Shown here: piece after piece, positions 14,251 to 17,660 of the stretch
Position numbering within the stretch: the first letter of the stretch is position 1
Layout: every line of letters starts with the position of its first letter
Assembly: GCF_053078305.1 (NCBI RefSeq)
Contig: NZ_CP166879.1
Direction: 5' to 3' (one strand)
Length of the DNA: 64,000 bases
Made by a program: the position numbers and the translations under genes
Notes under the pieces: generated by a model
Databases searched by the model: none
Seen by the model: the letters and a program-made list of their open reading frames with translations, nothing else
What the model was told of the DNA's origin: nothing

Positions 14251-14566
14251 ATATGAACTGACCACTCTAGGGAAGGACATATTCCTACCATTAACAGAAA
14301 ACTCACCAATAAAGACCCGGCTAAAACGACTTCCAGTGAACCATCACATAGTACCAGGTTGGATAAAGTCCATTCTCAACCGCAAACCACTGGGTCAGTT
14401 AAATATTCTGAATGACTGGTATTGTAATTATACGTAAAAATAACGCCAACAAACTGGTCAACCAATAAAAGCAAGAGGTTGATCACTTTCCTGGTAACGG
14501 GAAACGGGTAATATTTGGAACAACATGTGACCTTGTAAGCTTCCTTCTTAACCATTTGAGGTATAT

Positions 14567-15859
14567 ATGAAATATATAAAACACTACAGATGGCATATGA
14601 TTGTTCTCGTATGTTTCATTACAATCATTAACTATCTTGACCGTACAGCTCTTGGCGTTGCGGCACCAACCATAATGTCAGATTTAGGGATCTCTAAAGA
14701 ACAGTATTCCTGGATTGTAAGTGTATTCCAGCTGGCGTACACAATAGGTCAACCAATTATGGGGTTCTTTATTGATAATATCGGCCTTAAATTAGGCTTC
14801 TTTATCTGTGCAGTTATCTGGGGATTAGCCACTATGGGACACGCCCTGACTGGCTCCTGGATGGGACTGGCATTCATGCGTGGCATCATGGGCGTTAGTG
14901 AAGCTTCAGCTATTCCGGCGGGCGTAAAAACAGCTTCAACCTGGTTTCCGGCAAAAGAACGAGGCATCGCAACCGGCGTATTTAACATGGGAACATCATT
15001 TGGTGCCATGTTAGCCCCTCCTTTGATTGCATGGTGTATTATGTTCCACAGCTGGCAATTTGCTTTTATTGTAGCAGGTATACTGGCTGTAATAGCCGCA
15101 TTTATCTGGCTGATTTTCTATAAAGAACCAAAAGATGCAAAACGCCTTTCACCAGAAGAACGTTCATATATTGAAAATGGTCAGGAAAAGCATCTTAACA
15201 ATGCAAAAAAAGAAAAAACATCAGTAATCAACATCCTGAAACAAAGAAACTTTTGGGGAATCGGCATTTCTCGCTTTTTAGCTGACCCTGCATGGGGAAC
15301 AATTAACTTCTGGGTACCTGTTTTCTTTGTCGAAACACTGCATTTCAGCCTGAAAGAAATTGCCATGTTTGTATGGCTCCCATTCCTCATGGCTGATTTA
15401 GGGTGTCTTGCCAGTGGATTTGTTGCAAAATTCTTCAATGAAAGAGGAATTTCATTAATAAATTCACGACGTATTACTTTTACTATTGGTGCAATACTGA
15501 TGACGACCATTGGTCTGGTCAGCATCATAGAAAATCCCTATATTGCAGTTTTATTAATCAGCATTGGGGGATTCTCACATCAATTACTTTCTACTGTTGC
15601 TGCAACTTTAGGTGCTGACCTGTTTAAAAAGAATGAAGTCGCAACAGCTGTCGGAATGGCCGGGGCATGTGCATGGTCTGGTCAGCTGATTTTTAATTTA
15701 TTCATTGGTGCATTTGTCAGTATCATCGGCTTTGGGCCGTTCTTTATTGCACTGGCTGTATTTGACCTGATTGGTGCAGCAGCTTTATGGATACTGATAA
15801 AAGATAACAAACAGACAGATGATCACAGTCATAACAACAAACTGATTTCATCACACTAA
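14567..15859 (+). CDS. MFS transporter (hexuronate/anion:cation symporter-like)
   Basis: 430 aa, 12 predicted hydrophobic segments; YLDRTALGVAAP motif; low-GC codon usage unlike the flanking pdu genes. Confidence 0.8.
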   Translation: MKYIKHYRWHMIVLVCFITIINYLDRTALGVAAPTIMSDLGISKEQYSWIVSVFQLAYTIGQPIMGFFIDNIGLKLGFFICAVIWGLATMGHALTGSWMGLAFMRGIMGVSEASAIPAGVKTASTWFPAKERGIATGVFNMGTSFGAMLAPPLIAWCIMFHSWQFAFIVAGILAVIAAFIWLIFYKEPKDAKRLSPEERSYIENGQEKHLNNAKKEKTSVINILKQRNFWGIGISRFLADPAWGTINFWVPVFFVETLHFSLKEIAMFVWLPFLMADLGCLASGFVAKFFNERGISLINSRRITFTIGAILMTTIGLVSIIENPYIAVLLISIGGFSHQLLSTVAATLGADLFKKNEVATAVGMAGACAWSGQLIFNLFIGAFVSIIGFGPFFIALAVFDLIGAAALWILIKDNKQTDDHSHNNKLISSH

Positions 15860-16393
15860 GACGACGTCATTGTTTAATAAATTTAAACAATTATATATAA
15901 ATTTTATACTCTGAACATGAAAACCGAGTTAGCACTGGCGCATTTATTTGCGAGAAGGAGACCTCCAAAACCCTTATCGTGCCTTCATACTGCAGCCGGG
16001 GTCTGTTGTAGTTTCAGTGCTTTTTTGATGCAAAAAATACTTGTTAACAATCAAAAAAGTAATATCTTCAAACAGGTAGCCTTATGATCTTCCGGTTTTC
16101 CTGACGCTATGAAGCGCAAAAGCCGGGAATTAAAGAGTTCCGCCCCGGCAGTAAGTACCCCACACTAATATCGCTCTTATCTGTAATGCTTTGTAGTCAG
16201 ACACGTTATGGCTGACATCAAAAACCCCGGATTTCCTCTGCCAACGGATAATCACCTTCCCCGGTGTTTTCGGTTGAACAGGTCTGGTTACTCCTGTCTG
16301 GTTATTAGCAAGATAATCGCTATAAACTGTGGAAAAATCATCGTACATAACCTGGTACTCAACATTACTCTTATTTTCCCTTGCCCGGAAGAA

Positions 16394-16810
16394 TCAGAGG
16401 CGTGACTCAAGGCTGTCTGTCGGTACATTCCTCTCTCCGTTAAAAACCATAACAGGTTCATTATCTTCGTCTGTCAGTGGATTGAATGGCGGTATATTTT
16501 CTGTACGAATTCCGGTCAGCCACTGAAAAATACCCGCGAAATGACGGGCACTGATTTTTTTGTTGACGGACTGATGAGACGTTATGTCCCTGGCGGTAAT
16601 AATCAGGGGAACGCTGTAGCCCCCTTGTATATGGCCATCATGATGAACAGGATTAGCACTGTCGCTGACTGACAGTCCATGGTCAGAAAAGTAAAGCATG
16701 GCAAAATGACGTGAGTACCGGCGAAGGATACAGTAAGGGTGACCGGGAAAGTTATCCAGTTTACTGATGCTGACGAGGTAACAGACAATCTTTTGGGGAT
16801 AATGCAGCAT
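16394..16810 (-). pseudogene. Sulfatase-like (alkaline-phosphatase superfamily, EptA/OpgB-type) C-terminal fragment
   Basis: Contains the YFSDHGLS motif typical of phosphoethanolamine/phosphoglycerol transferases; no N-terminal membrane domain in any upstream frame; a further minus ORF 16130..16348 may be its decayed tail. Confidence 0.45.
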
Positions 16811-17338
16811 TTCTCACAATGTGTCAGCCGTTCCTCCAACGCTTCCTTTAATCATCCGCAATGACCAACTCGCACTCTGAACCCTTCACTCTTCCTTGCT
16901 GAACATGTATCGTCACATGGTTGACCCGATACTGAATCACGCGCAATTTATTACAACAACCATTTGTTGGTAAGACCTAAACGAAAAAAGAATCAGGCGC
17001 CGGGGAATAGCAGCCCATCGCAGGCTACTGAGGTGCGACTCATGATCCTGTTCACCTGGCTCTGGACAAGTGACCGCTACACACGTCAGAACTGACAGAC
17101 GCGTTTCTGGCAATCCTGGTTAACCAACTGGTGATTTATGTTGATTTCTCGTCAGAAACACCCCATGAACACATCAAACTCCCTAAAACCAGAGAACAAG
17201 CCAATAAATGTCCCTGATTGCTCACAGCCTTTCTACAATGACAGCATCAATATTTTTATAGTTTATGACTATTATCACATAAATTTACCTGTCTATGAGT
17301 TATTTAATAAAATTAATTTTTAAAACAATGGAGGATAT

Positions 17339-17617
17339 ATGAGAAATATCTTTGCTTTATTAGTCACTGTAATATCCTGCACAACTGCCAGTGCGGCGAT
17401 GACAGAAACATGTCAGAAGTATTTCGATGAAACAGATAAGTTTTTATCGCAAATGAAAACAACCGGAGTAGCAGAAGAACAGATTAATTTAATGAAACAA
17501 CAATATGAACAATCAAAGAAACAATTCTCATCTCTGCCCGAGGCAAGCCAGGATGCTGCCTGTAAACAAGCCAGTGATGCGCTTAAACAATCAATGAACG
17601 CTGCCGGAATTAAATAA
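17339..17617 (+). CDS. Small secreted protein (signal peptide, 2 Cys), function unknown
   Basis: GGAGG 7 nt upstream of ATG; N-terminus MRNIFALLVTVISCTTASA is signal-peptide-like; hairpin immediately downstream. Confidence 0.55.
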   Translation: MRNIFALLVTVISCTTASAAMTETCQKYFDETDKFLSQMKTTGVAEEQINLMKQQYEQSKKQFSSLPEASQDAACKQASDALKQSMNAAGIK

Positions 17618-17625
17618 TATAATAA

Positions 17626-17660
17626 AAGAAACAGTTATTGCATATTGATAACTGTTTCTT
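17626..17660. terminator. Bidirectional stem-loop terminator
   Basis: Perfect 13-bp inverted repeat AAGAAACAGTTAT / ATAACTGTTTCTT with a 9-nt loop, U-rich on both flanks, 9 nt after the stop at 17617. Confidence 0.5.

Follow-up and report, generated by a model that had tools for sequence, protein, structure and literature searches.

The block that we analysed lies in a 64-kb stretch of DNA (the window) that falls wholly inside a large E. coli island, where an aryl-polyene cluster and a contact-dependent inhibition (CDI) locus, cdiBA, are also found. Between positions 36400 and 60000 the window shares 98.7% identity with E. coli islands whose end is an integrase adjoining dgcT/pgaA. The pdu operon at its left (1–12146) is foreign in this lineage and shares 76% identity with the pdu operon usual in E. 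coli. The sequence-only reading had called the block at 14300–17660 more AT-rich than this operon, and its GC content is indeed 41.2%, compared with 51.8% for pdu and 51.1% for the whole window; just 2.5% of windows of equal length are as low. Third-position GC is lower as well (0.36 for the MFS transporter gene and 0.33 for the gene of the 92-aa protein, versus 0.48–0.54 for the pdu genes), and the block differs from its flanks in both composition and codon usage. Homology searches placed the left edge at 14227 instead of 14300 and revealed further breakpoints at ~16185 (16184–16186) and ~16869. These delimit three segments, A, B and C, each with a different best relative (Table 1). No Rfam match was found in 12000–22000 and no tRNA in the 64-kb window, and a consensus promoter scan gave matches no more numerous than in shuffled sequence.

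Table 1. Features of the AT-rich block and its flanks (positions in the 64-kb window)
Feature	Position	Strand	Evidence or remark
IS66 TnpB fragment	12621–13067		
IS21 debris, two IstB helper-ATPase fragments	13340–13969 and 13164–13325	−	PF01695, E 7.7e-24
Segment A, transporter module	14227–16186	+	Common to selC-side E. coli islands, e.g. strain 1303
Candidate UxuR/ExuR-type operator, TGGTCAACCAAT	14455–14466	+	Motif match, inferred site
Intact 430-aa MFS transporter, anion:cation symporter group	14567–15859	+	PF07690, E 1e-61
Segment B, PEtN (phosphoethanolamine) transferase debris	16181–16870	−	Two paralogues
3' stub, last ~62 codons of a 553-aa PEtN transferase paralogue	16181–16366	−	tblastn
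yjgX-type PEtN transferase C-terminal remnant, residues 357–491 of 500	16400–16804	−	tblastn
yjgX-type scrap, residues 148–173, in-frame stop	16793–16870	−	tblastn, blastn (K-12 among matches)
Segment C, DUF5339 module	16868–17664	+	Recurs elsewhere in unrelated contexts
92-aa DUF5339 protein	17339–17617	+	PF17274, E 3.3e-21
Perfect 14-bp hairpin directly 3' of the DUF5339 stop codon	17626–17660	+	
Decayed IS4 copy	18081–19502	−	97.75% identity to K-12 IS4, full length

Insertion sequence remnants lie on both sides of the block. The IS21 debris that had been proposed at the left was recovered as the two IstB fragments, which matched NF038214 (E 2.4e-32 and 1.5e-12, both under the full-length cut-off). 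An ORF upstream of them (13812–14309) may be a C-terminal remnant of IstA, and it gave no family match. At the right an IS4 copy is present as described, but it does not abut the block, from which it is separated by 416 bp (17665–18080), and it is decayed, with its transposase broken into ORFs of 126 and 308 aa and its left inverted repeat mutated. No target duplication was found around IS4. A diverged 53-nt repeat flanks the element on both sides.

The transporter of segment A proved to be intact, as first read, with 100% coverage against homologues of 428–432 aa and a PF07690 score of 209 bits (cut-off 33.4). The best NCBIfam model by far was TIGR00893 (2A0114), a broad "D-galactonate transporter" subfamily, which aligned end to end at 323.3 bits, below the curated cut-off of 395. 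The closest characterised relative is ExuT, the hexuronate:H+ symporter of K-12 (49% identity, E 4e-158), with which it shares a 12-helix MFS fold, the D-R and E proton-coupling residues and an upstream TGGT-NN-ACCA box. In alignment with DgoT (PDB 6E9N), the closest solved relative, the proton-coupling residues D46, R47 and E133 correspond to D25, R26 and E112 of the transporter. Unlike K-12 exuT (54% GC), the gene has 41% GC and is an island-borne second copy with no adjoining regulator or catabolic genes.

Homologues in Providencia, Yersinia and Pantoea were 86–89% identical to the transporter in amino acid sequence. Three of the five non-E. coli contexts examined were loci containing uxuA/uxuB/uxaC and a GntR regulator, and in four of the five a GntR/FCD regulator lay directly downstream of the homologue. 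In Providencia and two metagenomic/SRA assemblies the homologue (87–88% identity) is situated between uxuA-uxuB-uxaC and the GntR/FCD regulator, with kdgK and eda also present in two of these three loci, an arrangement like that of uxaCA and exuT-exuR in K-12. The Yersinia rohdei homologue shows this linkage only in part, for the GntR/FCD regulator, whilst the Pantoea homologue has unrelated neighbours, with both the uxu/uxa genes and the regulator absent. Beside the transporter in the present window uxaC, uxuA, uxuB and the GntR/FCD regulator are likewise absent.

A candidate operator with the core TGGTCAACCA is found upstream of the transporter, within the 18-nt context AAACTGGTCAACCAATAA (14451–14468), the first base of which lies 116 nt ahead of the ATG. 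Of its 18 positions, 13 agree with the UxuR operator of E. coli, AAATTGGTATACCAATTT (PMC8092373), and the uxaC-exuT sites of K-12 itself score equally. The window contains four sites scoring at least 13/18 against the UxuR consensus, with 2.7 expected, so that the match is statistically weak alone; TGGTNNACCAAT has its sole match in the 64 kb at the candidate operator (0.2 expected). Both Yersinia rohdei and the copy of E. coli 1303 have the box as well, and the uxu-MFS spacers of the relatives hold several TGGTTAACCA boxes.

These comparisons suggest, with reasonable confidence, that the transporter is an ExuT-like (hexuronate-type) H+ symporter that was acquired horizontally. It is unlikely that the gene is intact and selected for another organic anion, such as an aldonate, an aldarate or a glucuronide-derived acid. 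The identity to ExuT of just 49%, the sub-cut-off score against the broad subfamily model and the unrelated neighbours in Pantoea would all be consistent with a different substrate, but the three independent loci in which the homologue accompanies uxuA, uxuB, uxaC and a GntR/FCD gene, and the upstream TGGT-NN-ACCA boxes typical of UxuR/ExuR, argue against it.

Segment B contains the debris of two genes for lipid-modifying enzymes, both PEtN transferases. The 3' stub matched residues 488–549 of the 553-aa protein of E. coli 1303 (60% identity, E 4e-19), the paralogue of the type that adjoins the transporter in 61 E. coli genomes. The same stub lies downstream of a yjgX-type gene in strain 219, where the related island adjoins tRNA-Sec. 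The second gene is itself of the yjgX type, its C-terminal remnant sharing 85% amino acid identity with the intact strain 219 protein and 87% nucleotide identity with the K-12 yjgX pseudogene. An internal deletion of ~553 bp joins this remnant to the yjgX-type scrap, and residues 1–147 and 174–356 of 500 are missing.

This is the gene that had been described as the C-terminal fragment of a sulfatase-superfamily gene with an SDHG motif. The ORF at 16394–16810 (− strand) does contain YFSDHGL, with the D-H metal-binding motif of the sulfatase-type catalytic domain, and matches PF00884 (E 5e-7, model positions 204–296 of 301), but it derives from a PEtN transferase and not from a sulfatase. An arylsulfatase identity was rejected because the closest relatives that are intact have NCBIfam matches to PEtN transferase models alone (CptA, EptA, MCR) and the region for the formylglycine C/S-x-P-x-R motif is deleted. 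The motif sits in the yjgX-type remnant, not in the usual partner of the transporter, to which the yjgX-type protein is just 26% identical. In EptA/MCR enzymes, the Thr nucleophile and the Glu metal ligand both lie in one part of the catalytic domain. From the yjgX-type gene the N-terminal transmembrane domain has been lost, as has the region expected to contain this catalytic centre, and segment B is, to judge from its sequence, dead.

K-12 yjgX is also a PEtN transferase pseudogene, belonging to the KpLE2 element at leuX, and the K-12 order yjgX-yjgZ-IS4 parallels the local order here (yjgX remnant on the − strand, small gene on +, IS4 on −). The copy here is more decayed than that of K-12, through the 553-bp deletion, the stop and the loss of its N-terminal two-thirds, and is accompanied by the stub of the second paralogue. 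There is no DNA similarity between the K-12 yjgZ region and segment C, where the small gene encodes a DUF5339 protein. Islands at selC, pheU and pheV carry PEtN transferases of the YjgX/YhbX type as standard cargo (PMC6174562).

The small secreted protein of segment C, previously considered an orphan, gave a full-length match to PF17274 (DUF5339) with 76.3 bits against a gathering cut-off of 27.7, and 40 of 40 aligned relatives also matched this model. The strong ribosome-binding site claimed for its gene was found as GGAGG at 17330–17334, 4 nt ahead of the ATG. The terminator claimed for it stood in part: the hairpin has a folding energy of −15.3 kcal/mol (z −4.2, 0/200 shuffles as good), but it lacks a canonical U-tract and went uncalled in the consensus terminator scan. 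The protein begins with a Sec signal peptide with predicted cleavage after residue 19 (ASA/A), leaving a mature part of ~72 aa. All 40 aligned sequences start with a hydrophobic leader, typically with an A-x-A-type site at its end, and Cys25 and Cys75 are the only invariant positions. The signal peptide, the ~90-aa size and the invariant cysteine pair are shared with the PF17274 family, within which the protein shows nothing distinctive. AlphaFold2 predicted a three-helix bundle (helices 23–42, 46–64 and 68–88) with a pLDDT of ~88–91 over the mature part. The product is probably a small periplasmic three-helix bundle stapled by a disulfide, as modelled, and our best guess is an envelope or periplasmic binding role.

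Two further ideas about this protein were discarded. The sequence VISC resembles a lipobox, but its Cys14, within the signal peptide, is not conserved, whereas the A-x-A cleavage site is, and the protein was not taken as a lipoprotein. The idea that it is phage cargo came from its tail-fibre neighbours in E. coli JNEC-KY176; there was no PHROG match, and tblastn against 50,697 phage records gave none. Neither sequence nor profile searches of the PDB returned anything significant, and fold searches returned generic helical bundles only. In the literature DUF5339 is merely named, in a list of differentially expressed genes and in a gene map. An exhaustive representative search among 1.84 billion proteins gave 62 representative clusters. 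In Pasteurella the DUF5339 gene belongs to the core genome and is flanked by holA and mutT; the E. coli gene is accessory and mobile between islands and plasmids.

The three segments were distributed independently of one another. By blastn segment A is 92.7% identical across 1978 bp to related E. coli island DNA; 64 complete E. coli genomes match the transporter gene, 62 of them near full length, and the island-borne gene is present in ~1% of complete E. coli genomes. A PEtN transferase without the MFS gene occurs in ~450 genomes. Segment C is 92.6% identical to JNEC-KY176 DNA, where it is placed between a DinI-like gene and IS1414 with a tail-fibre remnant. The stretch 16440–19369, comprising the yjgX remnant, the DUF5339 gene and most of IS4, is 99% identical elsewhere, in another context without the MFS gene, and the DUF5339 core (17158–17626) alone is 99.4% identical in loci adjoining YadA-type adhesin and CdiI genes. 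No repeats bounding the block as a unit were found. With its distinct breakpoints, distinct best relatives and independent distributions, the block is a mosaic, and this is ordinary island mosaicism. The horizontal origin proposed for it was borne out, as all pieces are foreign, AT-rich island-type DNA with IS debris at the flanks. E. coli tRNA-associated islands (selC, leuX, pheV and serX types) show the same AT-rich mosaic, with IS debris, a PEtN transferase, adhesin/CDI genes and an integrase at one end; the present lineage differs from them in combining a foreign pdu operon with such scraps. We consider it likely that three AT-rich island fragments of independent derivation (a live ExuT-like gene, dead PEtN transferases and an intact DUF5339 gene) meet in the block, and that it is not one cassette.

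H-NS often silences island DNA that is rich in AT. It could be argued that nothing in the block is functional in the present lineage, the MFS and DUF5339 genes being silenced and intact only through too little time. All neighbours are decayed (IS21, IS66, IS4, the two PEtN transferases and a lone tail-fibre gene) and the regulator and catabolic partners of the transporter are gone, but three observations make such an explanation quite improbable. Compared with the E. coli 1303 copy, one residue in 430 differs, with 1 non-synonymous against 45 synonymous codon differences (dN 0.001, dS 0.173), which is incompatible with neutral drift over most of the divergence; the resulting dN/dS of 0.006 is an average over both lineages and hence no proof that the transporter is expressed in the present one. 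Each of the 23 contigs read had the same arrangement and an identical MFS protein (80 collection blocks are listed in the index). Finally, the adjoining remnants do show drift, with a dN/dS of 0.32 for the yjgX-type remnant, a stop codon and a deletion.

Least probable of all, and largely refuted by the distributions, is the proposal of the sequence-only reading that the block is what remains of a single uptake or modification module of horizontal origin, whose transporter, sulfatase-like enzyme and secreted protein once co-operated before partial decay. All three genes are AT-rich, and an intact sulfatase-superfamily gene does accompany the transporter elsewhere: among the 62 complete E. coli genomes that have the transporter gene near full length, 61 carry an adjoining PEtN transferase gene; however, these two genes are convergent and so form no operon, the PEtN transferase occurs alone in ~450 genomes, the SDHG fragment comes from a different paralogue, DUF5339 recurs in unrelated contexts including the Pasteurella core genome, and the partners of the transporter's closest relatives are uxu/uxa enzymes and a GntR regulator, with no PEtN transferase.

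Under the junction of three independent fragments, segments A, B and C would have been brought together by recombination, deletion and IS activity (IS21, IS66, IS4). Segment A would supply a working ExuT paralogue of horizontal origin. Among its closest relatives outside E. coli the gene appears to serve as the transporter in a locus for glucuronate utilisation (uxuA-uxuB-uxaC-kdgK-eda, divergent from MFS-GntR), and the E. coli island copy would have lost the enzymes and regulator whilst keeping the gene and one UxuR/ExuR-type box. From these homologies the transporter would most likely be an auxiliary glucuronate/galacturonate importer feeding the host uxa/uxu pathway, possibly repressed by host ExuR/UxuR. 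Segment B would represent the stub of the transporter's usual PEtN transferase neighbour together with a yjgX-type gene gutted by deletion and a stop codon, and segment C an intact gene for a small periplasmic protein with its own ribosome-binding site and hairpin.

A more far-reaching proposal can be put forward only tentatively, and we regard it as possible but somewhat doubtful. A second hexuronate importer that could be plugged into the host ExuR/UxuR regulon through a kept operator, under extreme purifying selection amid decay, might act as a small, self-sufficient gene that raises fitness in gut colonisation and is spread by selC-type and serX-type islands; separately, the disulfide-stapled periplasmic mini-protein DUF5339 might have a real envelope function.

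The findings on this block open no long-standing question, and their main yield is a correction of annotation: the "sulfatase" becomes the debris of two PEtN transferase genes, the "orphan" a DUF5339 protein, and the "cassette" three unrelated scraps. A modestly useful point is that a rare island gene can, by homology, be putatively assigned to hexuronate uptake with reasonable confidence. As this transporter is unusually constrained, it may add to the scavenging of sugar acids in the gut.

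The block at 14300-17660 is AT-rich, with a GC content of 41.2% against 51.8% in the pdu operon (1-12146) and 51.1% across the whole window, and only 2.5% of windows of equal length had GC as low, all at the far right end of the window. Codon positions also set it apart from its flanks, third-position GC being 0.36 in the MFS gene and 0.33 in the 92-aa gene, against 0.48–0.54 in pdu genes (0.6–0.7 in genes further right). These checks bore out the composition described in the sequence-only reading, and the horizontal origin of the block was confirmed. The proposal that it forms a single functional cassette was not: pairwise blastn against annotated genomes gave sharp breakpoints between three segments (A, B, and C) which travel separately.

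Features of the block and its edges
Feature	Position	Strand	Remarks
Segment A	14227-16186		92.7% match to island in E. coli 1303
Segment B	16184-16870		91% match to E. coli strain 219; 87% to K-12 yjgX pseudogene
Segment C	16868-17664		92.6% match to strain JNEC-KY176
IS66 TnpB fragment	12621-13067		
IstB fragments (IS21)	13164-13325 and 13340-13969	-	left of block
MFS ORF	14567-15859	+	430 aa
553-aa-type stub	16181-16366	-	last ~62 residues; tblastn; type partnering transporter elsewhere
Sulfatase-superfamily C-terminal fragment	16394-16810	-	with YFSDHGL
500-aa yjgX-type remnant	16400-16804	-	residues 357-491, including YFSDHGL; tblastn
yjgX-type scrap	16793-16870		residues 148-173, in-frame stop; tblastn
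DUF5339 ORF	17339-17617	+	92 aa
IS4	18081-19502		97.75% identity to K-12 IS4, full length

Downstream of the MFS gene in E. coli 1303 lies an intact 553-aa phosphoethanolamine (PEtN) transferase gene in convergent orientation; the strain 219 match spans a 500-aa PEtN transferase gene, on an island adjoining tRNA-Sec; and in JNEC-KY176 a DinI-like gene and IS1414 flank the DUF5339 gene, which lies beside tail-fibre genes. The MFS gene has a match in 64 of 5,426 complete E. coli genomes (all ~96% identity; near-full-length in 62), and an intact 553-aa PEtN transferase gene adjoins it in 61 of them, so that transporter and intact sulfatase-superfamily gene do co-occur elsewhere. About 450 genomes carry the 553-aa type without the MFS gene. 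The stretch 16440-19369 (yjgX remnant, DUF5339 gene and most of IS4) has a 99% copy elsewhere, flanked by a DNA-processing gene and a pertactin-type autotransporter, from which the MFS gene is absent, and the core of segment C (17158-17626) has a 99.4% copy beside YadA-type adhesin and CdiI genes.

The transporter is intact, as first read. It matches Pfam MFS_1 (E 1e-61), and its best NCBIfam model, TIGR00893 (D-galactonate-transporter subfamily), aligns over its whole length but scores 323 bits, short of the 395 cut-off. Among solved structures DgoT is nearest (E 4e-42), and its proton-coupling D46, R47, and E133 correspond to D25, R26, and E112 here; identity to K-12 ExuT is 49%. Homologues with 86–89% amino-acid identity occur in Providencia, Yersinia rohdei, Pantoea and two further assemblies. 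In Providencia rettgeri the homologue is divergent beside uxuA, uxuB, and uxaC, with a GntR/FCD regulator after it, and the two closest relatives (87–88% identity; a metagenome and an SRA assembly) have uxuA, uxuB, uxaC, kdgK, and eda on one side and a GntR regulator on the other. The regulator alone adjoins the Y. rohdei homologue, and neither uxu/uxa genes nor a regulator are adjacent in Pantoea. The relatives' regulators share 48% identity with K-12 ExuR, and their UxaC 66% with K-12 UxaC. As this layout is that of K-12 uxaCA and exuT-exuR, we read the MFS gene as encoding an ExuT-like hexuronate:H+ symporter; the protein probably imports hexuronates. Selection on the gene is observed, not inferred: it differs from the E. 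coli 1303 copy by 45 synonymous codons and 1 non-synonymous codon (dN 0.001, dS 0.173, dN/dS 0.006). We read it as acquired from a lower-GC member of Enterobacterales, with no donor among the relatives examined (nucleotide identity only 74–78.5%).

The island copy stands without regulator or enzymes. Upstream, a candidate box, TGGTCAACCAAT, is kept at 14455-14466 and is the sole match to TGGTNNACCAAT across the 64 kb (0.2 expected). The E. coli UxuR operator is AAATTGGTATACCAATTT (PMC8092373). The 18-nt context of the box matches AAATTGGTATACCAATTT at 13/18 positions, a score equalled by the K-12 uxaC-exuT sites, but the match alone is weak: 2.7 sites of at least 13/18 would be expected in the window, and 4 occur. 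Both the E. coli 1303 copy and that of Y. rohdei retain the box, and two to four such boxes stand in the relatives' spacers. By inference, host ExuR or UxuR may regulate the MFS gene.

The decayed sulfatase-like gene did prove to be a C-terminal fragment with the SDHG motif, but of PEtN transferase type, and tblastn showed debris here of two paralogues, just 26% identical to each other. Intact relatives match only PEtN transferase NCBIfam models (CptA, EptA, and MCR families), and no score reaches the equivalog cut-off. A deletion of ~553 bp separates the two yjgX-type pieces, and residues 1-147 and 174-356, including the transmembrane domain, are lost. EptA/MCR enzymes have a Thr nucleophile and a Glu ligand in the catalytic domain, and by analogy the lost part would include the portion bearing both. 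The remnant has a dN/dS of 0.32. Strain 219 has the same 553-aa-type stub downstream of its intact yjgX-type gene, so the junction between them is old. The order of yjgX remnant, small gene and IS4 parallels K-12 yjgX-yjgZ-IS4, and YjgX/YhbX-type PEtN transferases are standard cargo of selC, pheU, and pheV islands (PMC6174562).

Two neighborhoods elsewhere were also recorded. Just past the intact PEtN transferase on the selC-type island of E. coli 1303 (12346-13917 of that locus) lies a 523-aa protein annotated as ATP--cob(I)alamin adenosyltransferase, longer than is usual for that enzyme. In P. rettgeri (14072-15296 of loci L021/L022) a 552-aa sulfatase-superfamily gene, preceded by fdhE, selA, and selB, lies ~6 kb downstream of the ExuT-like transporter; this echoes the transporter-PEtN transferase neighborhood of the E. 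coli islands and may be coincidence.

The 92-aa protein, initially taken for an orphan, matches PF17274 (DUF5339; E 3.3e-21), and 62 clusters came up when 1.84 billion representative proteins were searched exhaustively, nearly all standalone and of 85–100 aa. One library match (P0164, 1198 aa) has five DUF5339-like stretches, all other relatives being standalone at ~90 aa. Across 40 aligned sequences the sole invariant residues are Cys25 and Cys75, with K2, Y28, and Q71 nearly so; every member carries a hydrophobic leader that typically closes with an A-x-A-type site. Conservation does not extend to Cys14, a lipobox mimic in this protein. AlphaFold2 predicted a three-helix bundle (23-42, 46-64, and 68-88; pLDDT ~88–91 across the mature part), and fold and profile searches returned generic helical bundles and nothing else. 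The ribosome-binding site was confirmed (GGAGG 4 nt ahead of the ATG); of the supposed terminator, a perfect 14-bp hairpin after the ORF stands (-15.3 kcal/mol, z -4.2), without a U-tract. Against the JNEC-KY176 copy, dN/dS is 0.24. The gene is a core gene in Pasteurella multocida, with holA and mutT either side, and in E. coli occurs on plasmids too. DUF5339 is an uncharacterised small secreted-protein family; the 92-aa protein is best read as a periplasmic mini-protein with a presumed envelope-related role, probably stapled by a Cys25-Cys75 disulfide.

IS21 debris bounds the block on the left, as described. IS4 is present on the right but stands 416 bp off the block end and is itself decayed, its transposase broken into 126-aa and 308-aa ORFs and its left inverted repeat mutated; no target duplication was found at its ends. 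A diverged 53-nt direct repeat (17947-17999 and 19669-19721; 72% identity) flanks it, which suggests either that a short sequence is repeated on both sides of IS4 or that the flanks were swapped by recombination.

At 36400-60000 the window is 98.7% identical to many E. coli chromosomes. Strain KC-Dl-1 has cdiBA, an aryl-polyene cluster, an enterotoxin gene and degraded garD and aga genes within or beside the matching stretch, and the island terminus there has an integrase adjoining dgcT and pgaA. The pdu operon, only ~76% identical to the usual E. coli one, appears to be a foreign copy borne by the island. On these grounds the whole window is E. coli island DNA.

Further right, a tail-fibre/assembly gene of phage type (DUF4376; phrog_11571, E 3e-141; 20281-21075, minus strand) stands alone, with no other phage genes nearby; its JNEC-KY176 homologue lies at the end of a lambdoid prophage, adjoining the DUF5339 gene. 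The contact-dependent inhibition (CDI) locus (21100-36310) comprises cdiB (34538-36310) and cdiA (25031-34525; 3164 aa), both on the minus strand, together with a series of orphan modules for PT-VENN toxins and CdiI immunity; a small SymE-toxin-like ORF lies near 21170-21340. The aryl-polyene cluster (37280-59100; ApeI/ApeP dehydratases, ketosynthases, an MMPL transporter and a LolA-like protein) has an enterotoxin gene and degraded garD and aga genes after it, which it shares with the KC-Dl-1 island.

One lineage is fixed for the order pduW, IS66, IS21, MFS, PEtN remnants, DUF5339, IS4, tail-fibre remnant, CDI: the identical MFS protein is indexed in 80 collection blocks, and gene order was the same at all 8 places shown (23 longest contigs read). 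The exact pduW-to-CDI arrangement is absent from all complete RefSeq E. coli genomes. The region is ordinary genomic-island mosaicism, in which the transporter is clearly live, both PEtN transferase genes are dead and the DUF5339 gene is intact.
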